Source: an uncultured bacterium
GTDB lineage: Bacteria; Verrucomicrobiota; Kiritimatiellia; RFP12; UBA1067
Direction: 5' to 3'
Length of the DNA stretch: 64,000 bases
Assembly: GCA_902799385.1 (NCBI GenBank)
Contig: CADCAK010000001.1
Location: 96,566 to 160,565 of the forward strand
Shown here: piece after piece, positions 30,168 to 43,527 of the stretch
How the letters are laid out: each line of letters starts with the position of its first letter
Position numbering within the stretch: the first letter of the stretch is position 1
Program-made: the position numbers and the translations under genes
The notes under the pieces: generated by a model
What the model saw: the letters and a program-made list of their open reading frames with translations, nothing else
Databases searched by the model: none
Told to the model about the DNA's origin: nothing

Positions 30168-30179
30168 GAGGTGTTTTAC

Positions 30180-31439
30180 ATGAAAAATATAGGTTATGCA
30201 GTCGTTACCGCCCTTGTGGCTTTTCTTGGGGCTACTTCGTACGGTGCAATAGTGACGGCATCCGACGGCGAGATCGTTCCTGGCGTCTGGAACTCCCGTT
30301 TCGGTGCCGCGAAGCAGTATGCCGACGCCAACCATGTCCCGATGATCGTCTTTTACGGGAAGTCCGACTGCTCGGAGTGTGCGAAGCTCAAGAAGGCGAT
30401 TGAGTCGGATGAGTATATCGCATGGCAGAACGAAAAGCGGTATGTGCAGGTTCTCAGCATCAAGTACTCGGCTCCGGACTGGAGCGATGCAAGGGAGTTC
30501 ATCAAGTCGTCGCCGTTGAATTCCGACAGCCTGCCCATGGTCTGCGTATACTGGAACAAGGAAGACGGCACAGTCATAAGGAAGGCGTTTGTCGGACGCA
30601 GCGGAAGCATGCCTTCGTCAAAGGGAGGCTCGCTCCAGGCCAAGTTCATCGACTCGATCGAGACCATACTTGGCGGCAGCGGCACGCAGGGCGGCGGCGA
30701 CACGCCGACTAAGCCGACCGTGCCGAGCTTCTTCAGCTCTGCAAAGACCATCGCCCTCGCGGCAACCGATGGCGCCGAGTCCTTCGAGGGCCTTGTCCAG
30801 GTGAAGGTCGGAAAGGCCAATTCCAAGACTCACAAGTCCAAGATCTCCGCCAAAGCCCAGCTTCTCGACTTCGGCTCCATGAAATTCTCGACGACCGCAT
30901 TTGACGTGGCGACGACGACGACATTTGTGCTGAACTCCTCGACTGGCGTCTTGACGCTTGAGTTCGACGGTGTCGGCTTTACCGGCACTCTGACGCGGCG
31001 CTCCGGGGTCGCTTTCCAGCTGCTTGGCGACGTGACGTTTGGTGGAGCCATGCCGACGGCAACGAGCAAGTTCTCCCTCCTCGAACCCCCGCAGGAATAC
31101 AGGGGCCGCGATATCTTCACCGAATGGCTGCCGACAGCCCAGGAATTCTCCACTGGAGCGAGGTGGTCGCTGCAAAAGAAGGGTTCGGTCAAATACAACA
31201 GGCGTACGGGCGAATTCGAGAATTCCGCCGCCGATACGAACGCAAGCGGGCTCAAGCTGTCCTACACATCGAGCTCGGGTTACTTCAAGGGCTCCTTCCT
31301 TGTCTATTACAAGGCGTCGGCAACCAAGGCGAGCAAGGTTACAGCCAAGGTCGTCGGGTATGTCGTCGACGGGGTTGGATACGGTACTGCTACAATCCCT
31401 TCGCTGGGAACGTATGACGTGCAGATAACCGCGCCATGA
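30180..31439 (+). CDS. secreted thioredoxin-fold (CSEC) protein with beta-rich repeats and shared C-terminal module
   Basis: AGGAGG SD then ATG 30180, with a signal peptide. MIVFYGKSDCSECAKLKK, with CxxC at 30369-30380. C-terminus SGLKLSYTSSSGYFKGSFLVYY..VDGVGYGTATI is shared with 37771..40335. Confidence 0.7.
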   Translation: MKNIGYAVVTALVAFLGATSYGAIVTASDGEIVPGVWNSRFGAAKQYADANHVPMIVFYGKSDCSECAKLKKAIESDEYIAWQNEKRYVQVLSIKYSAPDWSDAREFIKSSPLNSDSLPMVCVYWNKEDGTVIRKAFVGRSGSMPSSKGGSLQAKFIDSIETILGGSGTQGGGDTPTKPTVPSFFSSAKTIALAATDGAESFEGLVQVKVGKANSKTHKSKISAKAQLLDFGSMKFSTTAFDVATTTTFVLNSSTGVLTLEFDGVGFTGTLTRRSGVAFQLLGDVTFGGAMPTATSKFSLLEPPQEYRGRDIFTEWLPTAQEFSTGARWSLQKKGSVKYNRRTGEFENSAADTNASGLKLSYTSSSGYFKGSFLVYYKASATKASKVTAKVVGYVVDGVGYGTATIPSLGTYDVQITAP

Positions 31440-33217
31440 TGAGAAGACATGTCGCCATATCCCTGATGATTGCATTTGCTGCCGTGGTTCCCGCGGCGGC
31501 AGATGCATTCTTGGGACTTGACGGCAATGTCGGCAATCAGGCCAGTTGGAAGGAATCGTATTTCATTGCCATCGACCCGATTCACTTCTGCATGAGGCAG
31601 CCGGACGGCGCTACGCGGATTTTCCAGCGGGACATCGCCGAGCCGCATGTGCTTTTGGGCGATTCGCCGTGGGTCGGCGAGATTGACGGGGACCGGGTGC
31701 TGATTATGACCGATCCAAAGTCTGCGGCGACGAGGGTCGGTTTTCTCTTCGTCAAGGGCCGGTTGCAGCGCATGCTGCACGGCGATAGGGATATCGAAGT
31801 CCGCGGCAAGTCGGGAGAGATTGACGCAAGGCCCATGGGGACTTACTGGCCGGACGTCAGTTCCGACGCCGTTGCCGCCGCGAACGAGCGCTATGGAATC
31901 CACTGGCGCGACAGGTTCAAGCTGTGGTACAGGAATCCGAATGCGGCCGGCATGCTGCTCGCCGAGTTGGCGCTGCTGTCGTTGGCGTTGATGACGCTGC
32001 GTCGTGCGGGCATGAGGCCGTTGGGGGCGGCGGCATTTCTCATGTGCGCGTTTGGCGTGGCCTGCACTGAGTCGCGCAGCGCCATGCTTGGCCTGCTTTT
32101 TGGGCTCGCATGCATGCTTGCCGTTCATGCTCGGCAGGTGGTCAGCCGCCGGAATGCCGCAATCGCCGCGGTCTTGTGCGTGGTGTTTGCCCTGGCGGTC
32201 TGGATGGGCGGCTTCGCCGACCGATTCACGACCAAGTTGCTTGCCGAAGGGCAGTCCAGCGTAAGCAGGCTGCCAATTTGGGCCGAGGTGCCGAGGATGA
32301 TTGCTGCGGCTCCCTTTGGGTGGGGCATTGGACAGTCTGGCCTAGCGTACATGAACTGGTTTCAGCCTCTGGACCGCGGCCACGCCGTCCTCGGGTTGAT
32401 CAGCACTCATCTGACCTGGCTGGCGGAACTGGGCTGGCCAATGCGCATTGCCTACATGTTTGCCTGGTTCTCCGGCCTTTTGCTGCTGGCTTTCAGCGGC
32501 TTTCGGCGGAAGAACGCCCTGCCGCTCGCGGTCTGGGGCGCTTTTTTCGTTGCGAGCTGCTTCAACACGATCGGCACCGAGATTTCCCTTTGGATAATTC
32601 CGGTTGCCTTGCTGTCCGTTCCGGTTGCGGAGCGTTGCTGGCGGTATCGAAAGTCGTTCTTGGGCGCACTTGCCGCCGGCGCTGTGATTACGGCGGCATT
32701 GTCGGTGGCGCTGACCTGCCTTGGAAGCCGGTCGGACTTTACGATTCGCCGTGAAGGGCGTGGCGTTGTCATCAACGGCGACCATGCGTCCACCTGGGTG
32801 GTGGACGATGGCTATGTGCTAAGCGGGGGGTATTACGGACTTCTTGGCAAGGGCATTCGCGAATGGTTCTTGCGGCATCGCTCGGCTCCGGCGCTTGGCG
32901 TCGTCCAGCGGTTGGAAGACGTTCCGGCCTCGGCGACGCGCGTCGTCGTCGTCGGCAGGGCGGGTGTCTCGCTGCTTGAGAAGCGCGCAGACTTTCTCAA
33001 GGGGCATGGAAACGTGACGAAGGTTATATTCCTTTCGCCGCCATTTGGCTTTGAGGCCTGTGCGGATCTTGCCTGCGGGAACGTCGAAGTGGGGTTTGTG
33101 ACGGGAGAGTTCGCCAACCGCGTGTACGATGGCGGCGCGAAGTCGTGTCCAGAATGGGTCGATGTCGTCCCTGGATGCGCCCTTTATGTCCCAAATTGGC
33201 TTAGGTATGTTTTCTAA
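31436..33217 (+). CDS. Wzy_C (O-antigen ligase / O-oligosaccharyltransferase-like) membrane protein with extra N- and C-terminal soluble domains
   Basis: NPNAAGMLLAELALLSL, TESRSAMLGLLFGLA, SRLPIWAEVPRMIAAAPFGWGIGQSG and STHLTWLAELGW are typical Wzy_C motifs. ATGA overlap with the upstream gene. Confidence 0.6.
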   Translation: MMRRHVAISLMIAFAAVVPAAADAFLGLDGNVGNQASWKESYFIAIDPIHFCMRQPDGATRIFQRDIAEPHVLLGDSPWVGEIDGDRVLIMTDPKSAATRVGFLFVKGRLQRMLHGDRDIEVRGKSGEIDARPMGTYWPDVSSDAVAAANERYGIHWRDRFKLWYRNPNAAGMLLAELALLSLALMTLRRAGMRPLGAAAFLMCAFGVACTESRSAMLGLLFGLACMLAVHARQVVSRRNAAIAAVLCVVFALAVWMGGFADRFTTKLLAEGQSSVSRLPIWAEVPRMIAAAPFGWGIGQSGLAYMNWFQPLDRGHAVLGLISTHLTWLAELGWPMRIAYMFAWFSGLLLLAFSGFRRKNALPLAVWGAFFVASCFNTIGTEISLWIIPVALLSVPVAERCWRYRKSFLGALAAGAVITAALSVALTCLGSRSDFTIRREGRGVVINGDHASTWVVDDGYVLSGGYYGLLGKGIREWFLRHRSAPALGVVQRLEDVPASATRVVVVGRAGVSLLEKRADFLKGHGNVTKVIFLSPPFGFEACADLACGNVEVGFVTGEFANRVYDGGAKSCPEWVDVVPGCALYVPNWLRYVF

Positions 33218-33226
33218 CCAACAAGA

Positions 33227-35104
33227 ATGGAGGTAGATATGGCTACAACCGATAGGACCAAAGCGGAGGGAATCAACGGGCGGAAGTATGCGCTAGTGCT
33301 TCTGTGCGGGGCGTTTTCCGCCTGCGTGTCGTTTGCGTTCGAGTATGACGTGAGACGGCCGTCAGACGACTTGAAGCCGACTTTCCATGCCGCCGACACG
33401 AAGCCCGGGGCATGGACGCTGGCGGTAGACGACGCAATATCAAAGGCGAAGGCAGATGGCAAATACACTATCTTGATGAATACGGCGTCATGGTGGTGCC
33501 CGTATTGCGAGACGGCCGAGGAGCTGGTGCTTACGTCCAACATGTGGAAGTCCTATGTCGCGGCGCACGGCTTTTACCTTGCGGTCATGGATTTCCCGTA
33601 TCGCGGTCACGTCGGCGACGACCAGGTGTGGAAGAGCTGGCATCCCGAGCTGGGCGATGGATGGGGGTTCAAGTGCTGGCTGATGGATCCGGACTATCTG
33701 GCCGAGATCGGCCTTTCGGCCGATGAAGGCCTCGCGGCCATCATGTCGCTCTACGAGCATCAGGCCGACTACGCACTCCCGACCGGAGACCTCATCACCA
33801 TAAAGCGCTGGGATACGCAGGAGGACTTCTCCTACCACAAGCTGGGATACCTGACGCTGATTGTCATCGGTCCGGACGGCGTCGAGGCCGGGCGCGTCGG
33901 CTTCCCGTGGTGGAACACGAATTCGGTTACCCAGAGGGAGGCCCAGGAATACGTGATCCAGGCGATCGAGCGCATCATTGCCGGCGAATGCGAAATCTGC
34001 CAGGACGAAACGCCTTCGGTTGTCGATGTTTCCAAGGCGCACAAGTACAACGGCTGGATGCTTGACTCCGAGGGCGTCATGTCTGGCTCGATCGAGATAT
34101 CGACGAGCAAGTACAACGGCAGCGCGAAGAGCGTAAAGGCCCGCGTCAAGGCGGTGCTTGGCGGCAAGGCGGTCTCGTTCCCGACGGTCGAGGTCCCGGT
34201 TTCGGGCTGCATCGTGTGCGGGGACGAATCGGAGATCGAGACGGTCGAGGTCTCAAAAGACGGCTACCGTGGTTCGGTCCACATCGGGACAGACGGCCTT
34301 TCGGGCAGTTTCTGGCACGGGGACACGGCATATACGGTTAAGGGCGGATGCAATCTGTTCAGGGAGAAAGACGCCCATGCGAAAGCTCTTTTGGCGACAA
34401 GTCCGGTCGGCGTATGGAGCCTTGTTCTCAAGAACGCCGAAAAAGACGGCTTGTCCCCTTTCTCAAGGGGCATGGGTGCAATATCCATGGACGTAAGGCG
34501 AACCGGCGTTGCCAAGTTCACCGGCACGATGGGCGACGGCACTAGGGTCTCGTGCTCGTCGCAGGTCATACTCGGAAGCAACGGCATCGCATGCGTGCCG
34601 TTTGCCGCACGGCTCTACAACAAGAAGGGCGGCTTAAGCTTTGTGGTATGGTTCAAGGACGGCGAGCTACTGAGCGTGGAATCCGTCTCCAAATGGGTCG
34701 CTGCCGGAAAGAATCCCTTCGAGGTTGCGGTTGCCGTCCAGAACACCATGTCCGTCGGCATCGGCGTGGTGCCGGACGAGATGGACTTTACCATCGACGA
34801 CTTCCCTGCCGAAATCGGCGGAATGCCGTTGGTCGGGGACCAGTCTGCCGATGTTGTCAAGGCGAGCGGCAAGAGGTGGTTCGGCTCGGAGTTGACCGGC
34901 TTCAAGGCAACGGTTGCGGGACGCACGGGATTTTTGAACGGCAGCATGACATTCTTGGTCAGGAAGGATTCCGGCGAAGTCAGGCCGGTGAGAGGCACCT
35001 TCAAGGGCATTGTCATGGGCGGGGCCGGCTATGGGACCGTGATTGTACAGAATGTCGGCACATGGGCGGTCAAGATCGCCGCGTGCGGTTCCTGCAACGA
35101 CTAG
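33227..35104 (+). CDS. secreted thioredoxin-fold (CPYC) protein with beta-rich repeats and related C-terminal module
   Basis: ILMNTASWWCPYCETAEEL, with CPYC at 33497-33508. C-terminus GFKATV..GSMTFLV..GGAGYGTVIV. Alternative start ATG 33239 sits behind GGAGG. Confidence 0.7.
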   Translation: MEVDMATTDRTKAEGINGRKYALVLLCGAFSACVSFAFEYDVRRPSDDLKPTFHAADTKPGAWTLAVDDAISKAKADGKYTILMNTASWWCPYCETAEELVLTSNMWKSYVAAHGFYLAVMDFPYRGHVGDDQVWKSWHPELGDGWGFKCWLMDPDYLAEIGLSADEGLAAIMSLYEHQADYALPTGDLITIKRWDTQEDFSYHKLGYLTLIVIGPDGVEAGRVGFPWWNTNSVTQREAQEYVIQAIERIIAGECEICQDETPSVVDVSKAHKYNGWMLDSEGVMSGSIEISTSKYNGSAKSVKARVKAVLGGKAVSFPTVEVPVSGCIVCGDESEIETVEVSKDGYRGSVHIGTDGLSGSFWHGDTAYTVKGGCNLFREKDAHAKALLATSPVGVWSLVLKNAEKDGLSPFSRGMGAISMDVRRTGVAKFTGTMGDGTRVSCSSQVILGSNGIACVPFAARLYNKKGGLSFVVWFKDGELLSVESVSKWVAAGKNPFEVAVAVQNTMSVGIGVVPDEMDFTIDDFPAEIGGMPLVGDQSADVVKASGKRWFGSELTGFKATVAGRTGFLNGSMTFLVRKDSGEVRPVRGTFKGIVMGGAGYGTVIVQNVGTWAVKIAACGSCND

Positions 35105-35132
35105 CTTGGGCTCCGTATAGGCAACACGGCAT

Positions 35133-36095
35133 ATGCAAAAGAAGGCAATATCCATCGGCTTGGCGCTGTTCGCGTCGTTCGTGCTCGTAGTGGTGCTGGT
35201 GTTCGTGCAGGGCGGCGGCAGGCAGCAGTCGCCCGACTCGGGTGGCCAGGATAGCAAGGCGGGCGCCGTGTCTCGTCGCCGCGGCGCGAGTCCCCGGCCT
35301 GAAAGCCGCGCAAAAGGGTCTGACGAGCGTCAAGGGGCCAAGAAGAAGGCCCGTAGGCCCATGCCGCAAATTGTCTTTGACGATCCGGATCATCCATACT
35401 CCGCAGCGGACAAGCGCATTGCGCGCGAACTTCAGGACGCGTTGGACAACTGTACGGCAGACACCGCGGACGATGAGTCGGATGAGGGCGACGGCATATT
35501 CTCCAAGAAGCAGTCCGACGCGCAGAGCAAGTTGATGAAGGCTGCATCTGCGGCCGCCGCCTCGGACAATCCCTCCGTCAGGCTGAGGGCTGTGGAAGCG
35601 TATTCGTGGATAGGGAAGGATGCGCTTCCGGAAGTGACCGTGATGATGGCGGACTCGGACGAGAATGTCGCCGAACAGGCCATCGAGGCCGTCGGGCAGT
35701 CCCTTCTGGACATTGACGACTCCAACGACCGCTTCCAACTCGCAACGACGTACATGAGCACATTCTCCTCGAACGAGAACGCGCTTTCCATGCTTGGCGG
35801 GATTTCGTCCGGAGCGGCGCTTGCGCTGATGGAGCCGGCGAGCGACAGTCCGGCGGATGTCGCGGTTGCGCTTGAAAACAGGCAGTTTTTCGTAGATACT
35901 GTCAGTGCGCTCGTCGAAGGCGGCCAGGGGAAATGCAGCGAGCACGCGCAGTCGCTCTACGAAGAGGTCACCGGTTCGCCGTGGATAGATGCCGACGAGG
36001 GCGAGCGCTGGGCTACGAATCCAGACGGTTACGAGGCGCCGGAGACTCCGGAACCGCAAGATGTGCAATCTGAGCAAGGCGAGCCGAGAGGCTGA
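35133..36095 (+). CDS. N-terminally membrane-anchored HEAT-repeat-like protein, family H (paralog of 36952..37749)
   Basis: TM segment ISIGLALFASFVLVVVLVFV followed by a basic linker. NPSVRLRAVEAYSWIGKDALPEVTVMMADSDENVAEQAIEAVG is HEAT-like. Confidence 0.65.
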   Translation: MQKKAISIGLALFASFVLVVVLVFVQGGGRQQSPDSGGQDSKAGAVSRRRGASPRPESRAKGSDERQGAKKKARRPMPQIVFDDPDHPYSAADKRIARELQDALDNCTADTADDESDEGDGIFSKKQSDAQSKLMKAASAAAASDNPSVRLRAVEAYSWIGKDALPEVTVMMADSDENVAEQAIEAVGQSLLDIDDSNDRFQLATTYMSTFSSNENALSMLGGISSGAALALMEPASDSPADVAVALENRQFFVDTVSALVEGGQGKCSEHAQSLYEEVTGSPWIDADEGERWATNPDGYEAPETPEPQDVQSEQGEPRG

Positions 36096-36151
36096 GCGCC
36101 GCGAGGAAGGGTTTCATTCATCCAAAAAATAAAACGAAAGGAAAACGAAAA

Positions 36152-36946
36152 ATGAAAAAGCTCATTATTGTTGCTGCAATGGCGTTTGCGGGCGGCGCCG
36201 CCCTTGCGGATGCGCAGGTGTATGAAATGCAGCTGACCTTGAAGACCACGGTTTCAAGGTCGGGGCAGGTCAAGTTCGTCGCCTGCGACTGTCCGGTCGA
36301 CGGTAGCACCCTCTACCGTAGCCAGGGGACCGTGAAGATCAAGGGACTGATCTGGGGCTGCGACTGCGTTACGCTGTCGGATCCAGACATATCATCCGAG
36401 GCGTCGAGTCTGGCCAAGTCGTCGTATGGCTACATCTTTTGGAACGAGACTACCAGGAAGCCCATGAATCTCAAGTTCAAGTGGGAGCTTCTCAATCGAA
36501 TCGACAGGACGGGACAGAAGGCGGAAGGCACCTGGACGCTCTCTTCCGACGACGGGACGTTCTACATCATGGGCTCGGGTTTCGGCTCCGTAAAGGATAC
36601 GGTCGTTACCAAGCCCGTATGCGAGAGGACCGCGACATGGGTGCCTAGCATGAGCGGCAACCTCGCCGGCTGGTCCACGCCTGGCGCAATCGTGACTGTC
36701 CAGGCGACGGCCGGGGAGTGCTCGTGGTGCGAGAAGGTCGAAGGCTCCGAAGAGCAGACGGCTTCGGCGAAAGGCTGGACATTGTGCGAGTGCGGCGATT
36801 CCGACGAGCGTACTGCGGCGAGCGGGACATGGAAGCTGAAGTACAACGCAAAGGCGGCCAAGATCCTCTCCGACAAGTCCAAGGCTGTTGAGTCCGTCAC
36901 GCAGGCGTATTCCTTCCCGTCGTACGTTAAAAGCGTGATCGAATAG
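36152..36946 (+). CDS. Cys-rich small secreted protein, family A (paralog of 28123..28902)
   Basis: Signal peptide. 9 Cys (CDC, CDC, CSWC, CEC). VYEMQLTLKT, SGNLAGWS and SGTWKLKYN are shared with the paralog. Confidence 0.75.
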   Translation: MKKLIIVAAMAFAGGAALADAQVYEMQLTLKTTVSRSGQVKFVACDCPVDGSTLYRSQGTVKIKGLIWGCDCVTLSDPDISSEASSLAKSSYGYIFWNETTRKPMNLKFKWELLNRIDRTGQKAEGTWTLSSDDGTFYIMGSGFGSVKDTVVTKPVCERTATWVPSMSGNLAGWSTPGAIVTVQATAGECSWCEKVEGSEEQTASAKGWTLCECGDSDERTAASGTWKLKYNAKAAKILSDKSKAVESVTQAYSFPSYVKSVIE

Positions 36947-36951
36947 TCATT

Positions 36952-37749
36952 TTGTCGTTTGACGGCACAAGGACGCGACTATTGCTTTCGCAAGGCAGAA
37001 CAAGGGTCATCGCGCTGTCGTCGGCCGCAGTGGCCGCCGCCGCAGTAGTTCTTGTCTGCCTTGTGCGGACTTTCGGCAGGGAGCCGGCCGTTGCGGAATC
37101 GCGCGGGGAGCGCAGTCCAAGCGTTCCCCCGCGCCGTTCCAATGCCCAGTCCAAGCCAAGGTCTTCGCGTCCGAAGCCCGTATTGTCGGTCTGCGCGGTT
37201 GACGACGACGAGGACGACGGTCGCACGCCCGCCGAAAGGGCGCTTGCCGAACGTATCGACAAGGCGCTCGAAGACGAAGACTTCGGATTGGCAGCTTCTT
37301 GCGTCGACGAGGCGCAGAAATGCAGCGTCATCGAGATTCGCCAGGCCATGGTCGAGACGCTTGGCTGGTTTGGCGAGAAGGCCCTTCCCGAACTGATCCC
37401 GTTCCTTGCCGATGCAGACGGGAATGTCCGCGAGAGCGCGATGAACGAATGGACTATGGCGCTCTCGTCCGTGGAGAACGACGAGGAGAAGATTGGCCTC
37501 GTCGAGCAAGTCATGGGAGTTCTGCGCGATGAGGATGCGCTGGAAGAAATGTCCGGCGAATATATAGGTGTAGACGAGAAGATGGCCGTAGAGTCGCTTA
37601 TGCGCATTATTGCGTCCGGGGGATCGGCAGAAGGTATCGCAAAAGCCAAGGAGACATATGAATTCGTGACGGGTAACGAGTGGGTCGGCTTTGAAGAGGC
37701 GGATCGCTGGATTAAAGAGGAATATGCGCCGTCTGAAACTATGCCGTGA
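36952..37749 (+). CDS. membrane-anchored HEAT-repeat-like protein, family H
   Basis: IEIRQAMVETLGWFGEKALPELIPFLADADGNVRESAMNEW. The tail EFVTGNEWVGFEEADRWIKEEYAPSE parallels 35133..36095. TTG start is uncertain. Confidence 0.6.
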   Translation: MSFDGTRTRLLLSQGRTRVIALSSAAVAAAAVVLVCLVRTFGREPAVAESRGERSPSVPPRRSNAQSKPRSSRPKPVLSVCAVDDDEDDGRTPAERALAERIDKALEDEDFGLAASCVDEAQKCSVIEIRQAMVETLGWFGEKALPELIPFLADADGNVRESAMNEWTMALSSVENDEEKIGLVEQVMGVLRDEDALEEMSGEYIGVDEKMAVESLMRIIASGGSAEGIAKAKETYEFVTGNEWVGFEEADRWIKEEYAPSETMP

Positions 37750-37755
37750 AAGCAA

Positions 37756-37765
37756 GGGGGGGGGG
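37756..37765 (+). repeat. homopolymeric G10 tract 5 nt upstream of the C10 peptidase start codon
   Basis: Counted directly: AAGGGGGGGGGGCAATCATG. Confidence 0.95.
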
Positions 37766-37770
37766 CAATC

Positions 37771-40335
37771 ATGGACAAGGGCAAGATCGTCGTTGCGGCA
37801 ATTGCTGCTTCATTTTTATGCGGGTCGGCTTGGTCTGCGGAGGTAAGTTCCGCCCAGGCGGAGACCTTTGCCAATGTATGGTCTTCCGTACGTGCGCGAA
37901 GGATGCCCGGCGAGTGCCGAGAAAGACGCAGGGTGTCCCTTCGTACAATTTGCACCAAGTCCGACAGGCCGCTCTTCCATGTCGCCAATCTGCCCGAGGG
38001 TGGCTTTGTCGTGATGTCGGGCGACACGGCCCTAAGTCCGGTTGTCGCATACTCCGACGTGGGGGCATTTGTGGAGATGGAGGGGAATCCGGTCTATGAG
38101 GCCCTTTTGGCCGATATGTCCGCCCGCATTGCGGCTGTTGATTCGTCGAATCGCCAAACGGCGAAATGGCCAAATGTAGAAAGGATTGCCAAGGCGAAGG
38201 CCATGGCGTCGATAGGGGAGGACGGGCTGGATGGCGTCAGCGACATAAGGGTCGCGCCAATCACCAAGGCGAAATGGTCGCAGCTCACTTTGGGAGGCCG
38301 GAATGCATTCAACATGTATACTCCCAACAACTATTCCTGTGGATGTGTGGCTGCGGCGTTTCTGGCGGTCATGCGCCATTGGTGTGAACCGCGCGGCCCC
38401 GTCGCGCAGTCGATGATGGTGTGCTGGATAGACGGCGTGAGGACGTCGCTTCAGATGATGGGCGGGACCTACGATTGGGCGTCAATGCCATTGGAGTGGT
38501 CGAATGAAGTTACCGATGTCCAGCTCCGGGAAATAGGCAGGGCGGCGTATGATGTGAGCTTGGCCATGCACACGAGCTATTACCAGTCTGGGTCGCAATC
38601 ATGCGGCGAGCTGGGTGCCCAAGCGCTTGCCACTGGATTTGGCTATGCCTCAGTCCGCGTGTACGATACCATAAATGCGGCGTTGGCATCGAAGAACTTG
38701 ATCGACTCGGAAAACTACCGGAATGCCATTCTAGCCAGTCTTGATGCTGGCATGCCGGTTGTTGTCGGCGTGCAGAACGAGTCGGTAGGCCATCAGCTCG
38801 TAATCGACGGCTACGGATTCAGCGCCGGCAATGTGTTGTTCTGTCACCTGAACTGCGGATGGGGAGGGATGTGCGACTTGTGGTACAACGTGATGGCCGG
38901 CGGCGTCATAGACCCATACTGGTTTACGGTAGTCGAAGACGTCGTCTACAACATACATCCAAGGGTTTCCGGCGACGTTATATCGGGACGGGTGCTCGAT
39001 GATAACGGCGTCCCGGTGCCAGGGGTGTCCGTGAAGCTCTCAAAGGGAGATTCGTCGGAAGCGACGACGACGACGGACGCAAAGGGGATCTTCTCTTTCA
39101 GGTTTAGCGGGAAGGGTACATTTACGCTGGAGGCCGCCGATCCTACACTTGGCAGCGCGAAGCGCAGGGTCGTTATTGGGGCAGAAGGCAAGGATCCGGA
39201 ATTCGAGTTTGATGATCTAACCAACAGCAGTTGGCTGTATTCCGACGGTGTCGTCGCCAATCGCTGGGGGCAGGATCTCGTGCTAACCCCCCCGGAGGAC
39301 GGCGGAGACGACTCTTTCGACGAGCAGCCGTTTGATGCCGCAAACGCCGGTGTGTTCGATGGATGCATACTGGCCGATACGGAGATAAAGGGAACCATCC
39401 AAGTCAAGGCTGGCAAGGCAAAAAACGGGGAAAGCAAGGTTACGGCTACGGTAATTCTGGCAGACAGTCCTAAGAAGCTCAGTTTCAAGGGCGTTTTGCG
39501 CACGGACACGGGCTTTGCAACACTTTCCTGTGCGCGCGAAGAGGACATGTCGATTTATCTTGGCAAGGCGCGTTTTTCAGGCGAGATGGCAAATGGGTTT
39601 AGGGTGTCCGGAGTCCGCAATCTCTTCCTTTCGAAGGACAAGGCTGAGGTTAATGCCGCAGAGGGCGTCTTGGCGCCAAAGATCGGCACTCTCAACGTCG
39701 TCGGCGATAATCTTGTCATGGCCGTGAGCATCGGCAAGAAGGGCAAGGTCAAAGTGTCCGGCACATATCGTGGCGTAAAGGTTTCCGCCTCGGTTCAGGC
39801 ATATGTCGGCGATGGCGGATCCGTGCTTGTGCCTGTCGTTGTATCCAAGAAGGGCTCGCTTGCGTTTTTGCTCACTGTAGGCGATTCAACCGCCTCGATT
39901 GCCGGTTTAGGCGACGATATAAAAGTCGGGAAGCAGGGAAGATTGCAATCAGGCGCGGTGTTGCAGCTTCCCGACGGTGCGTTTGCGTCCATATCCGGAC
40001 TTCTTGTCGATTTGTTGCCTGACAACGAGCCGCTGACCGTATCTAATGGCAAGTGGGATACGGCCAAGGCCGCCAAAGTCACGTATAAGAACGGTGTGCT
40101 TGAGATAACGCCGGCGGTCAAGGGGGGAAATGTCGAGAATCCGTCGGGCCTCAAGTTGTCCTACAAGGCCAAGGACGGCTCTTTCAAGGGGTCGTTCAAG
40201 GTTTATGCGGTTGCTTCCGGCAAGTTGCAGAAGTACACTGCAAACGTTGCCGGCGTGCTTGTGGACGGCATAGGCTACGGCACTGCGGAAATCAAGAAGG
40301 TTGCCTCTTGCCCAGTCGTGATATCGGAGCCCTGA
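37771..40335 (+). CDS. secreted C10-family (streptopain-like) cysteine peptidase with Spi-like propeptide, CarboxypepD_reg-like domain, beta-rich repeats and shared C-terminal module
   Basis: KAKWSQL..YTPNNYSCGCVAAAFLAVMRHW, with the catalytic Cys codon at 38344-38346. His motif VGHQLVIDGYGF. LNCGWGG. GRVLDDNGVPVPGVSVKLS. C-terminus SGLKLSYKAKDGSFKGSFKVY..VDGIGYGTAEI. Confidence 0.85.
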   Translation: MDKGKIVVAAIAASFLCGSAWSAEVSSAQAETFANVWSSVRARRMPGECRERRRVSLRTICTKSDRPLFHVANLPEGGFVVMSGDTALSPVVAYSDVGAFVEMEGNPVYEALLADMSARIAAVDSSNRQTAKWPNVERIAKAKAMASIGEDGLDGVSDIRVAPITKAKWSQLTLGGRNAFNMYTPNNYSCGCVAAAFLAVMRHWCEPRGPVAQSMMVCWIDGVRTSLQMMGGTYDWASMPLEWSNEVTDVQLREIGRAAYDVSLAMHTSYYQSGSQSCGELGAQALATGFGYASVRVYDTINAALASKNLIDSENYRNAILASLDAGMPVVVGVQNESVGHQLVIDGYGFSAGNVLFCHLNCGWGGMCDLWYNVMAGGVIDPYWFTVVEDVVYNIHPRVSGDVISGRVLDDNGVPVPGVSVKLSKGDSSEATTTTDAKGIFSFRFSGKGTFTLEAADPTLGSAKRRVVIGAEGKDPEFEFDDLTNSSWLYSDGVVANRWGQDLVLTPPEDGGDDSFDEQPFDAANAGVFDGCILADTEIKGTIQVKAGKAKNGESKVTATVILADSPKKLSFKGVLRTDTGFATLSCAREEDMSIYLGKARFSGEMANGFRVSGVRNLFLSKDKAEVNAAEGVLAPKIGTLNVVGDNLVMAVSIGKKGKVKVSGTYRGVKVSASVQAYVGDGGSVLVPVVVSKKGSLAFLLTVGDSTASIAGLGDDIKVGKQGRLQSGAVLQLPDGAFASISGLLVDLLPDNEPLTVSNGKWDTAKAAKVTYKNGVLEITPAVKGGNVENPSGLKLSYKAKDGSFKGSFKVYAVASGKLQKYTANVAGVLVDGIGYGTAEIKKVASCPVVISEP

Positions 40336-40352: not shown

Positions 40353-41840
40353 ATGTTCAGCCAAGGCAGAATTCGCGTTATAGCGCTTGCTATGTCAGAT
40401 GCCTTGTGCATCGTGGCAATGTGGGCATTTGCCGCGTGGGGGTACTGGGCGCTCGGCGGTTTTCTGCGCACGCATGGCTGGCCGGGCTGTCCATGGGGCG
40501 GATACGAGCTTGCGGAGTATGTGCGGTTCTTCCCGGTCGCCATCGCGTTTGTATGCGTCAACGCCGCGCTTGACCTGTATCACGGCAATTGGATGTATCC
40601 GTCCTCCCCGCAGGGCCCCGTCGAAGAGTTCCGGCGGCTGTGCATTTCGTCGCTCTTGACGCATGCGGGCGCGATTGCCTACATGGCGTTTGCCTACCAG
40701 AGCATGGAAGGCCGCATATCAAGGGCGGTCTGCATCTACGCATGCCTGCTTGCTTCGGTAGGCACCCAATCGTTCCGCAACTGGATGCGGTTCGTCCTGA
40801 AGCGATTGAACATGGGGCAGATACCCGTGGTGCTTGCGGGTGGCGGCGAGGCGGCACATCGTTTTGCCGCAGTCCTTGACGGCGACCCCTACGCTGGCAT
40901 CCGCATCGTCGGGTATTTCGCGGGCACTGAGAGGATTGGACGCAAGCGCCGTCGTCGGGCATGGAATGAACGCGATTTTCAGGACAGGAAGATCACCTAT
41001 CTCGGAACGCTTCGCGACATCGTCCCCCAGGCGAAGAAGCGCGACATCAAGATGCTTGTCGCCTGTCAGGACGACCGTCTTTTCCGGGCGCAGATGGACG
41101 AATTCGCAGCATGGTTCACGTATGTCGTCTACCTGCCGGCGGCGCGGTCGTTCCCCATATTCGGCGCACGCGCCGTAAACTTCGACGGTATTGGCGGACT
41201 TGAGATGGTCAACCAGGGGCGCATGAAGGTGAAGCGAGTTCAGAAACGCGTGATGGACGGTTTCCTTGCGCTTGTGGCCTTTGCGGTGTTTCTTCCGGCG
41301 TTTCTCGTAATCCCAGTGCTGGTCAAGCTTACGAGCCGGGGCCCGGTATTCTACCGGCACAGGCGCCTAGGGCGGGACGGGCGCGAGTTCTTCATCTGGA
41401 AGTTCCGGTCGATGTACGTAGACGCAGACCGCCGGCTCAAGGCGATCTTGGCTTCCAGCCCGTCGGCGGCGAAGGAATGGGAGTCGTCGTTCAAGCTTTC
41501 GCGCGATCCGCGCGTGACGCCTTTCGGCAGGTTGCTCAGAAAGACGTCCCTGGACGAGTTGCCGCAGCTTTTCAACGTCTTTTTCGGCGACATGGCGCTT
41601 GTCGGCCCGCGTCCGATAGTGGACGACGAGGTTCGGCAATACGGCAATTCGTATCGCGTGTTCTCGTCGGTCCGCCCGGGTATTACCGGCCTCTGGCAGG
41701 TGTCGGGGCGAAGTGACACCGGCTATGGGCGCCGCATCGCTCTCGACACGTACTATGTGCTCAACTGGTCGCCTTGGCTCGACCTGTGGATACTCCTGCG
41801 CACGGTGTTCGCCGTGTTGTTCATGCGCGGCGCGCGGTGA
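40353..41840 (+). CDS. polyprenyl-phosphate hexose-1-phosphate transferase (WbaP-type bacterial sugar transferase)
   Basis: 495 aa with N-terminal TM segments. C-terminal DELPQLFNVFFGDMALVGPRP and GITGLWQVSGRSD. Confidence 0.88.
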   Translation: MFSQGRIRVIALAMSDALCIVAMWAFAAWGYWALGGFLRTHGWPGCPWGGYELAEYVRFFPVAIAFVCVNAALDLYHGNWMYPSSPQGPVEEFRRLCISSLLTHAGAIAYMAFAYQSMEGRISRAVCIYACLLASVGTQSFRNWMRFVLKRLNMGQIPVVLAGGGEAAHRFAAVLDGDPYAGIRIVGYFAGTERIGRKRRRRAWNERDFQDRKITYLGTLRDIVPQAKKRDIKMLVACQDDRLFRAQMDEFAAWFTYVVYLPAARSFPIFGARAVNFDGIGGLEMVNQGRMKVKRVQKRVMDGFLALVAFAVFLPAFLVIPVLVKLTSRGPVFYRHRRLGRDGREFFIWKFRSMYVDADRRLKAILASSPSAAKEWESSFKLSRDPRVTPFGRLLRKTSLDELPQLFNVFFGDMALVGPRPIVDDEVRQYGNSYRVFSSVRPGITGLWQVSGRSDTGYGRRIALDTYYVLNWSPWLDLWILLRTVFAVLFMRGAR

Positions 41841-41844
41841 AATA

Positions 41845-41853
41845 TGGTATAAT
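41845..41853 (+). promoter_or_regulatory. extended -10 TGGTATAAT ending 8 nt before ATG 41862
   Basis: AATATGGTATAATACCGGGAAATG, read directly. Confidence 0.45.
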
Positions 41854-41861
41854 ACCGGGAA

Positions 41862-42629
41862 ATGCTGGGAAAACTAAAGCAACACCAATTCCTGTTCGAG
41901 GAGCTTGTCAAGCGCGACTTCAAGAAGAAGTACAAGCGCACGGTTCTCGGCATGGGCTGGAGCATGCTGTCGCCGCTTTTGATGTTGCTCGTCATGAAGG
42001 TGGTGTTCGAGCAGTTCTTCGGGCGCACGGTAAACCATTACACGACTTATCTTTTCTGCGGCCTTCTTACGTTCAACTGGTTTTCCGAATCTACGAATGG
42101 AGGCATGAGGTGCCTGTTTGCCAATGCGGGCATATTCACGAAAGTGAACGTCCCGAAGTACCTATTCCTCTTCTCGATCAACATCCAGGTGCTGCTCAAC
42201 TTCGCCTTGACGCTTCTTGTGTTCTTTGTTTTCTGCGCGATCGACCACGTGCCGTTTACGTGGCGATTCCTGTGCCTCGCCTATCCGATCGCCACCTTGC
42301 TGCTCTTCAATCTCGGGATAGGCATGGTGCTTTCGGCGCTTTTCATATTCTTTCGCGACATAGACTATCTTTGGTCTGTCGCTCTGCAGCTCATAATGTA
42401 CGGCTCGGCGATATTCTACACGGTGGACAACCTCCCGCCGAGGGTGCAGCTCGTCTTTTCCGCGAATCCCGTCTATCGGCACGTCGCCTACATTCGCGAG
42501 GTCGTCTTGTCGGGCTCGGTTCCGTCGCTTGAGTCGCACCTTGTCCTTCTTGGCTTTGCAGTAGCCGCTTTCCTGGCCGGTGCGTACATGTACAAGCACT
42601 ACAACACGAAATTCCTGTACTATGTCTGA
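41862..42629 (+). CDS. wzm: ABC-2 type polysaccharide export permease (Wzm/TagG-like)
   Basis: 255 aa. N-terminus QHQFLFEELVKRDFKKKYKRTVLGMGWSMLSPLL is typical of ABC-2 glycan exporters. Six hydrophobic segments. Confidence 0.85.
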   Translation: MLGKLKQHQFLFEELVKRDFKKKYKRTVLGMGWSMLSPLLMLLVMKVVFEQFFGRTVNHYTTYLFCGLLTFNWFSESTNGGMRCLFANAGIFTKVNVPKYLFLFSINIQVLLNFALTLLVFFVFCAIDHVPFTWRFLCLAYPIATLLLFNLGIGMVLSALFIFFRDIDYLWSVALQLIMYGSAIFYTVDNLPPRVQLVFSANPVYRHVAYIREVVLSGSVPSLESHLVLLGFAVAAFLAGAYMYKHYNTKFLYYV

Positions 42630-43527
42630 CAAGAGGCCAATGCTGTCGTGCCGCAACGTCTCCATCCGCTACCAGGTCGGGGACTTCAAGAACATCGGCC
42701 TCAAGGAATGGGCGATGAGGCGACTTGCGGGCAAGTACAGGGTCGTCGACTTCTGGGCGGACAGGGACGTCAGCTTCGAGATATGCGAAGGGGACATGCT
42801 TGGCATAATCGGCGCGAACGGTGCCGGGAAGTCAACCCTGCTGAAGGCGGTTTCCGGCATAATGGAGCCGACCAGGGGCAGGATAGTGCGAAACGGGAAG
42901 GTGTCTGCGCTTCTTGAACTGGGGAGCGGGTTCGACGGCGACCTGACGGTGAAGGAGAACGCCTACCTTCGCGGCGCGATGCTCGGCTATACTCGCAAGT
43001 TCATGGACAGGACATACCCGTATATAATCGACTTTTCGGAGCTCAAGGCGTTCGAGGACCGTCCGTTCAAGCAGCTGTCTTCGGGAATGAAGTCGCGTCT
43101 TGCGTTCGCCATCGCCTCGCTCGTGAAGCCCGAGATACTGATTCTCGACGAGGTGCTTGCGGTCGGCGACGGCGCGTTTCGCGCCAAGAGCGAGGCAAAG
43201 ATGCGCGAGATCATCAAGGGCGGCGCGACGACGATTCTTGTCTCGCATTCGCTTGTCCAGGTTCGCGCCATGTGCAACAGGGTCCTTTGGCTAGACAAAG
43301 GTCGGCAGATTGCGTTCACGGACGACGTGGCGGGAGTATGCGACTGCTACGAGGAGTATCTCAAGAACCGTGGGGCGGGGCCCGTCTACGACCCAGCGGC
43401 CGCGAAGGCCCGCATCAACGCGCGGGCGGCGGAGAAGGCCCGCCGCGAGGCCGAGGCGCGGCAGATGAAGGCAGATGCGGACAAGCTGAGGAAGGTTCGT
43501 GAGATATTGAGGGGGGTGAAGCCATGA
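42622..43527 (+). CDS. wzt: polysaccharide ABC transporter ATP-binding protein (Wzt/TagH-like), short form without carbohydrate-binding domain
   Basis: Walker A GANGAGKST, signature LSSGMKSRL, Walker B ILILDE. Start ATG 42622 overlaps the wzm stop by 8 nt. Ends in a charged helical tail. Confidence 0.85.
   Translation: MSDKRPMLSCRNVSIRYQVGDFKNIGLKEWAMRRLAGKYRVVDFWADRDVSFEICEGDMLGIIGANGAGKSTLLKAVSGIMEPTRGRIVRNGKVSALLELGSGFDGDLTVKENAYLRGAMLGYTRKFMDRTYPYIIDFSELKAFEDRPFKQLSSGMKSRLAFAIASLVKPEILILDEVLAVGDGAFRAKSEAKMREIIKGGATTILVSHSLVQVRAMCNRVLWLDKGRQIAFTDDVAGVCDCYEEYLKNRGAGPVYDPAAAKARINARAAEKARREAEARQMKADADKLRKVREILRGVKP

Follow-up and report, generated by a model that had tools for sequence, protein, structure and literature searches.

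The window analyzed here is a stretch of 64,000 nucleotides from contig CADCAK010000001.1 of an uncultured Kiritimatiellia bacterium, whose assembly (GCA_902799385.1, here G000) is a metagenome-assembled genome (MAG) with a completeness of 77.5%. Near the middle of the window, a series of genes on the forward strand encodes three secreted proteins of otherwise different build, namely a 422-amino-acid (aa) and a 625-aa thioredoxin-like protein and an 854-aa C10 cysteine peptidase, which end in related C-terminal domains (Table 1). The original prediction, made from the letters of the window, had located three similar C termini at positions 31242-31436, 34892-35101, and 40138-40332; these coordinates are correct, and each segment lies immediately 5' of a stop codon. 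It had also pointed to an adjoining Wzy_C-type protein and a glycan export locus, both of which are present: the stop codon of the gene for the 422-aa protein overlaps the start codon of the Wzy_C gene, and the locus starting at position 40353 holds glycosyltransferase genes beside those for WbaP, Wzm, and Wzt.

In pairwise comparisons with BLASTP, the 422-aa and 854-aa proteins align over 114 aa with 39% identity (E 9e-16), the 625-aa and 854-aa proteins over ~375 aa (E 1e-8; residues 260-618 of the 625-aa protein), and the two thioredoxin-like proteins match each other at E 2e-6. Judged by these alignments, the homology of the three tails is far beyond chance. A genome-wide scan with a profile of the tails, as had been recommended, was carried out with a profile hidden Markov model built from 65-70 aa and searched against all six-frame open reading frames (ORFs) of the 2.7-Mb assembly. 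It matched only six ORFs, every one of them at the extreme C terminus, with the next-best ORF at an E value above 1. The six are the three window proteins and three more on contigs C22, C6, and C4, and all of them have signal-peptide-like N termini as judged by eye.

The shared unit had been put at about 65 aa, a size that has to be revised, since homology covers the last 250-370 aa in all six paralogs (alignment A1). The 65 aa are the best-conserved end, namely the last five strands, of a C-terminal domain whose canonical form spans ~340 aa. The last 65 aa carry 3.30 bits per column, as against about 2.6 in the remainder of the domain, and are 40% identical among the six paralogs, compared with 25% elsewhere; the conservation maximum lies at LKLSYKAKDGSFKGSFKVYA. 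Two associated suggestions, that related units recur internally and that the family A proteins of the window end in a similar element (GTW.LKYN), were not borne out. When the 65-aa piece was compared profile to profile (hhalign) with the remainder of the domain, P values were 0.03-0.1 and probabilities at most 1.6%, and for want of a significant match the piece does not appear to be a copy of an internal repeat; the family A ending reached a probability of 0.2% and is unrelated to the domain. The same P values, together with the single compact fold of the 341-aa region described below, rule out the 65 aa as an independent module.

Searches with the three window proteins and the six domain copies returned no Pfam, NCBIfam, or PDB sequence match to the domain. 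No Big, Ig, or adhesin model matches it, nor does any known sorting family, which removes the case, raised at the outset, that it is a known adhesin or Ig-like repeat family. The same proteins and copies gave no match to PF18962 or TIGR04183 (Por_Secre_tail) at E<=0.1-1, in keeping with the initial impression that the consensus of the C-terminal domain (CTD) of the type IX secretion system (T9SS) is missing, and the domain is not homologous to the T9SS CTD. No description of it was found in the literature searched, and it is an undescribed family. For the 422-aa protein, the match to the domain profile covers residues about 177-422 (E 1.3e-60, from a small database). The 625-aa protein resembles NCBIfam DsbH below the cut-off (E 8.3e-8) and has orthologs among the retrieved homologs (P0178 and P0189). 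The C10 protein consists of a signal peptide, an I69 inhibitor prodomain, Peptidase_C10, CarboxypepD_reg, and the C-terminal domain.

Table 1. Genes and domain copies around the three domain-bearing proteins of the window, followed by the domain proteins on other contigs of G000
Feature	Coordinates	Strand	Remarks
Family A cysteine-rich secreted protein, first copy, 259 aa	28123..28902	+	syntenic in G007, G169, G184
PpiC/SurA-like peptidyl-prolyl isomerase, 387 aa	29004..30167	+	PF00639 E 1.8e-9
422-aa secreted thioredoxin-like protein, CSEC motif, short domain form	30171..31439	+	Thioredoxin_7/Thioredoxin_2 below Pfam cut-off
Short domain variant, ~245 aa, on 422-aa protein	30696..31436	+	
Wzy_C-family membrane protein, 593 aa	31436..33217	+	PF04932 E 6.4e-12
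625-aa secreted thioredoxin-like protein, CPYC motif, DsbH-like, divergent full-length domain	33227..35104	+	
Domain on 625-aa protein, ~365 aa, extra ACGSCND tail at end	34004..35101	+	
Membrane-anchored HEAT-repeat protein, 320 aa	35133..36095	+	HEAT_2 below cut-off
Family A cysteine-rich secreted protein, second copy, 264 aa	36152..36946	+	
Second HEAT-repeat protein, 265 aa	36952..37749	+	paralog of 35133..36095
854-aa C10 cysteine peptidase	37771..40335	+	Pfam PF13734, PF01640, PF13620
Canonical domain, 339-341 aa, pI 9.2, on C10 protein	39316..40332	+	profile match residues 516-854
WbaP-type initiating phosphoglycosyl transferase, Wzm permease, Wzt ATPase	40353..43527	+	TIGR03025 above cut-off, Bac_transf
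Domain protein, 465 aa, domain-only	C22:23123-24517		
Domain protein, 429 aa, short variant	C6:17552-18838		
Domain protein, 2016 aa	C4:41888-47935		

To gauge the size of the family, 1.84 billion representative proteins of public metagenomes (clustered at 50% identity) were scanned with the A1 profile; 1,839 clusters matched at E<=1e-3, of which 646 did so at E<=1e-30. The matched proteins are labelled "hypothetical" or by repeat family only, and the named ones are proteins of Kiritimatiellae MAGs. A family model in Pfam or NCBIfam thus seems warranted, the proteins being annotated at present only by their repeats. Among 232 retrieved homologs, each protein carries exactly one copy of the domain, whose end lies within 5 residues of the C terminus in 216 of 231 homologs and within 22 residues in all 231; at 79 loci from species-representative genomes, the distance from the domain to the stop codon is at most 10 residues for 77 copies. 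The proposal of a conserved C-terminal element with a positional preference on diverse exported cargo is therefore upheld.

The passengers are varied. Across 55 homologs, the N-terminal parts include Flg_new (32), BspA-type leucine-rich repeats (LRR_5; 21), Flg_new_2 (11), Peptidase_C10 (3), and Reprolysin (2), besides CARDB, VWA, transglutaminase, NosD, Calx-beta, esterase, and BACON, and thioredoxin-like domains also occur. A hydrophobic leader is found at the N terminus of 124 of 177 complete-looking homologs, and many copies of the domain are preceded by a Pro/Thr/Ser-rich linker. Some members, such as the C22 copy, are domain-only, that is, nothing but a signal peptide and a Pro/Thr linker precedes the domain, and these rank among the most conserved members of the family. 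In four homologs (P0155, P0021, P0184, and P0186), a conserved two-helix membrane leader (MIxxYQM...LG...GR.N...VVYGGTKP) takes the place of the signal peptide and is followed by a low-complexity Pro/Thr or Gly/Ser linker and then the domain; it may serve as an alternative means of N-terminal targeting or anchoring.

The domain-only protein on C22 has a partner. At C22:21278-24517 (L103:6278-9517), a BspA-type LRR_5 gene encoding 614 aa without the domain is followed, after 3 nucleotides, by the domain-only gene, whose product begins with a signal peptide, continues with a conserved "AMPIGVRTLMNGHAAVRQA" peptide and a Pro/Thr linker, and ends in the domain. The pair is found in two genomes. 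A metagenome contig (L014:1612-4283) carries it. It resembles a split form of the frequent LRR-domain fusion and suggests that the domain can act in trans. Downstream of the pair on C22 lie genes for a Bac_transf protein, a PglD-like acetyltransferase, a Kdo transferase, and proteins resembling pseudopilins of type II secretion systems.

The genome loci come from MAGs of the rumen or gut of cattle, goat, yak, deer, horse, and Hadza human, labelled Kiritimatiellae or, in older entries, Verrucomicrobia or Lentisphaerae, and the family is restricted to uncultured rumen and gut Kiritimatiellae. Three contigs with the domain (L068, L083, and L088; 2.8-9.5 kb) sit in MAGs labelled Lachnospiraceae and Anaerovoracaceae (Firmicutes); these are probably mis-binned Kiritimatiellae contigs rather than cases of horizontal transfer. 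Across the order, the domain was matched in 37 of 201 genomes and 17 of 45 genera, with copy numbers that are lower bounds, only eight candidates per genome having been scored. Strong multicopy matches are concentrated in the family of the window genome. Its own genus is patchy, with matches in 11 of 25 genomes; the six richest, among them G000, contain 7-18 matching pieces each.

A structure prediction had likewise been called for, and AlphaFold2 folds the 341-aa region of the C10 protein as one unit. With a 50-sequence alignment (A2), the model reached a predicted local distance difference test score (pLDDT) of 94.6 and a predicted template modeling score (pTM) of 0.88, which indicates one compact body. 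It replaces a first model from six sequences (pLDDT 69.5), whose Foldseek matches to sliding clamps were spurious. In the model, residues 14-103 form eight strands, 111-124 a helix, 126-207 a further eight strands, and 217-339 a last set of nine to ten strands. The domain has about 27 strands and is all-beta apart from the internal helix. A Foldseek search of the PDB found no global fold match (best E 1.5e-3, template modeling score [TM] <=0.25). Local matches over 118-146 columns, with probabilities of 0.93-1.00, were to 8-stranded up-and-down barrels: lipocalins, the erythrocruorin linker barrel, ToxS, and 2lfu, a Neisseria meningitidis vaccine-antigen chain that we take to be the C-domain of NHBA (probability 1.00, TMt 0.47, local only). 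Lower-ranked matches comprised LbpB, TbpB (from the search that also gave the spurious sliding clamps), the multi-barrel QHNDH alpha subunit, which is the highest whole-chain match, Fsa2/Phm7, BFA1, and AimA.

Taking the strand count and the local fold matches together, the domain is probably an assembly of three packed 8-stranded up-and-down (meander) barrels. On this three-barrel reading, the 65 aa noticed initially would make up the final five strands of barrel three. The short variants, on the 422-aa protein and in the C6 copy, are smaller by an amount of sequence that corresponds to about one barrel. The likeness to lipocalin and calycin barrels is only local, and in lipocalins the eight-stranded barrel is followed by a helix; from these and from multi-barrel proteins the domain differs in its global TM and in the absence of their sequence signature, and none of them is a terminal tag on diverse cargo.

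The domain also stands out by its charge. Its median isoelectric point (pI) among the homologs is 9.43, with 89% of copies above pI 8 and a median net charge of +13, whereas the remainder of the same proteins has a median pI of 4.63. In the main subfamily, near-invariant lysines occur in strands at i, i+2, and i+4 (K144/146/148 and K282/286/288), a spacing that would place them on one face of a sheet.

We then considered the genes around the domain. The window contains a cassette with the conserved order PpiC, Wzy_C, thioredoxin-like protein with domain, family A, HEAT, protease with domain, WbaP, Wzm, and Wzt. Homologs of the window's Wzy_C protein occur in 18 of the 201 genomes of the order, and domain-type genes flank the cassette Wzy_C in all 13 species genomes examined, as well as in the metagenome locus L015. 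These are canonical in G000, G006, G007, G021, G169, G162, and G184 and belong to a divergent subfamily in G199, G183, G185, G163, and G018, with weaker matches in G005; the E values for the divergent subfamily derive from tiny databases, and the weakest are only suggestive. WbaP-Wzm-Wzt lies directly downstream of the cassette in all of them, and the gene order is alike in L015, G007, G169, G184, and G018. The HEAT-repeat and family A proteins are syntenic members of the cassette, the two family A copies of the window matching one another at E about 1e-7, and the PpiC/SurA-like isomerase is syntenic in G007, G018, G169, and L013. In L015, a reprolysin-type protease with the domain stands where the C10 protease does in the window. 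Over the 201 genomes, domain and cassette Wzy_C co-occur with an odds ratio of 9.5 (p 2.6e-5, uncorrected for phylogeny).

The divergent subfamily sits on large thioredoxin-like proteins that are encoded next to Wzy_C in other species (L011:3952-7908 from G018, L096, L097, L098, L099, and L102). In place of the terminal GxGYGTA hairpin, these have "PGW..C..C....RPF..G..[FW].D" and some 50 additional residues. The ACGSCND tail of the 625-aa window protein may be a remnant of this ending.

Four Wzy_C-family paralogs are encoded in G000, at C6:51558, C10:8479, C31:32465, and window positions 31436-33217. The type represented at C6:51558 (about 520-550 aa; 551 aa in C6) is present in 10 of 10 genomes tested, including domain-negative ones, and is the likelier housekeeping O-antigen ligase. 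Given that this other paralog is conserved in all ten genomes, the cassette Wzy_C appears to be accessory rather than a general O-antigen ligase, and a housekeeping role for it is unlikely.

What might such a domain do? We propose that it is an envelope-retention or sorting domain that is analogous, not homologous, to the T9SS CTD, a function inferred from the features above and one that we consider about evenly poised between right and wrong. Passenger and domain would be exported together by Sec, after which the domain would act as a retention or sorting handle, its basic surface holding the acidic passenger on the cell envelope without a covalent bond. The putative ligand would be an anionic envelope polymer such as lipopolysaccharide (LPS) or a surface glycan; the prime candidate is the polymer made by the WbaP-Wzm-Wzt locus, and the conserved cassette would mark the ancestral, glycan-linked core of the system. 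Several observations point in this direction. A single-copy, terminal position is typical of anchoring and sorting domains and not of binding repeats; domain-only proteins exist, as does the split LRR_5/domain-only pair; a basic domain on an acidic passenger suits noncovalent binding to an anionic polymer; and the cassette ties the oldest-looking members to a glycan pathway.

The proposal draws on likeness to known systems. Like the domain, the T9SS CTD is conserved and sits at the extreme C terminus of numerous exported proteins that are otherwise unrelated, among them C10 proteases, BspA-type LRR proteins, and the thioredoxin-motif protein HBP35 of Porphyromonas gingivalis, and both are linked genetically to surface-glycan genes (WbaP and the Wzy_C family). 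The T9SS CTD is a 70-100-aa Ig-like sandwich, whereas the domain has ~340 aa, probably in three barrels, and occurs in another phylum than Bacteroidota; SprA (PF14349) gave no match in six domain-rich genomes, and none of 14 control genomes matched either. In T9SS, the CTD is cleaved off and a glycolipid anchor takes its place. The GW modules of Listeria InlB and Ami are basic and C-terminal and hold an LRR and B-repeat passenger through an anionic envelope polymer. The domain is likewise basic (pI 9.4) and follows LRR and Flg_new (InlB B-repeat-type) passengers. GW modules differ in being SH3-like tandem repeats instead of a single-copy domain of probable beta-barrels, the host of the domain is diderm, and Pfam GW has no match on the domain. 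Among terminal anchoring and sorting domains, the fold arrangement, the phylum, and the genetic context would be new.

Several observations weigh against the proposed retention or sorting role. Three of the six copies in G000 have a pI of 5.8-6.6, and 9% of the homologs lie below pI 7. Thioredoxin-like and PpiC partners are typically periplasmic, so that some of the domain proteins may stay in the periplasm. Only 3 of 79 domain loci are near the Wzy_C cassette, which leaves about 95% of the domain genes elsewhere, and no recurrent family that could be a reader, ligand-maker, or machine gene emerged among all clustered neighbors of these 79 loci. Finally, two proteins extend 133 and 290 residues past the domain, which indicates that a free end is not strictly required. 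In these two (L021:7504-10146 and L073:1903-7851), the domain is followed by unrelated, apparently folded sequence.

It is conceivable, if unlikely, that the domain is an ordinary ligand- or substrate-binding domain, lectin- or adhesin-like, for plant, host, or microbial polymers and has no role in sorting or anchoring. Lipocalin- and TbpB-like barrels do bind ligands, the LRR, Flg_new, and protease passengers are typical of adhesive or degradative exoproteins, one copy of the domain lies in a sialidase/NanM locus for sialic acid, and the basic surface could equally bind anionic dietary or host glycans. Binding modules, however, usually vary in position and are often found in tandem, whereas the domain is single-copy (231/231) and terminal (97-100%), and the high conservation of proteins made up of little more than signal peptide, linker, and domain fits this reading poorly, as do the fusions to thioredoxin-like oxidoreductases, where a use for substrate targeting is harder to see. 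Somewhat less probable again is that the terminal barrel is a translocation signal read by an outer-membrane translocon, in the manner of the cargo barrel of type 11 secretion systems (T11SS; Slam). The strictly terminal, single-copy placement on diverse passengers would suit such a signal, as would the peak of conservation in the putative last barrel. T11SS cargo is described as comprising an N-terminal effector that varies, a handle made of beta-sheet, and, at the C terminus, an 8-stranded barrel on which secretor specificity depends (bioRxiv 10.1101/2023.03.15.532718). The pairing of a variable N-terminal part with one or more probable C-terminal barrels is similar in the domain proteins, and the local Foldseek matches of the domain to 8-stranded barrels include 2lfu, lipocalins, LbpB, and TbpB. 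Yet in that source T11SS are described from Proteobacteria only, and the domain, at about 340 rather than about 120 aa, is three times larger and has no match to TbpBBD or lipoprotein C models in Pfam. DUF560 (PF04575) was not matched in the six domain-rich genomes (the control genomes gave none either), and no conserved outer-membrane partner gene adjoins the domain genes at the 79 loci.

A covalent route would follow the T9SS-like logic of the original prediction: the accessory Wzy_C protein would either glycosylate the domain (or the linker ahead of it) or join it to the glycan that WbaP starts on undecaprenyl and Wzm/Wzt export, and the proteins would end up bound covalently to a surface glycan. 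This we regard as improbable. In its favor, Wzy_C is translationally coupled to two of the window's domain proteins, is flanked by domain-type proteins in 13 of 13 genomes, always beside WbaP-Wzm-Wzt, and is an extra paralog limited to cassette-bearing genomes; PglL and PilO, which are protein O-oligosaccharyltransferases, also belong to the Wzy_C family, and Pro/Thr/Ser-rich linkers lie ahead of many domains. Most domain genes, on the other hand, are far from the cassette, 26 of 37 domain-positive genomes (incomplete MAGs) have no match to the cassette Wzy_C at E<=1e-20, the thioredoxin-like passenger is as constant across cassettes as the domain itself, and neither a sortase- or PorU-like peptidase nor a PglL-specific domain match (Pfam) was identified. 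An all-beta domain of ~300 aa at the extreme C terminus of diverse secreted passengers in a diderm host also recalls outer-membrane-embedded beta-barrel anchors of the autotransporter type, and there are very weak Foldseek matches to the TamA and PgaA barrels. This reading is very improbable, and we reject it on composition, terminal residue, and fold matches: about 27 short strands and an internal helix suit several small barrels and not a single one of 12-16 strands, soluble 8-stranded barrels account for the confident local matches and outer-membrane proteins reach probabilities of at most 0.2 and a TM of about 0.12, no Autotransporter model (PF03797-type) in Pfam matches, and the domain is rich in Lys (10.8%) and poor in aromatics (6.5%) and ends in Glu in 32 of 50 homologs instead of an aromatic beta-signal.

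The domain bears on a group of abundant polysaccharide degraders of rumen and gut, the Kiritimatiellae, of which almost none are in culture. Present at the end of more than 1,800 protein clusters, it offers a handle on how they display or secrete their large sets of adhesin-like proteins and proteases; it defines a testable exoproteome, and recombinant domain could be used for structure and ligand studies. The linkage to Wzy_C and glycan genes suggests a candidate route of surface tethering outside the known T9SS, sortase, and exosortase systems. It is tempting to go further and to speculate, at long odds, that domain and cassette form a previously unknown protein-display pathway of Kiritimatiellae, in which Wzy_C couples undecaprenyl-linked glycan to the domain or linker or builds a docking glycan. 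If this were true, the pathway would tether hundreds of different exoproteins per community to the cell surface and would parallel anchoring by T9SS and anionic LPS (A-LPS) in function, having evolved independently from unrelated parts.

Two smaller observations concern the domain in G000 outside the window. Two more C10-peptidase homologs, of 1509 aa (C4:51124-55650) and 2829 aa (C13:17133-25620), lack the domain, which is thus not a fixed feature of the C10 proteases of this genome. At C6:15613-21557 (L104:5613-11557), the 429-aa domain protein is encoded between a gene for a DUF3472 and BNR sialidase-like protein and one for a NanM-SSF fusion, that is, a sialate epimerase joined to a sodium:solute symporter, in what is a locus for sialic-acid harvesting.

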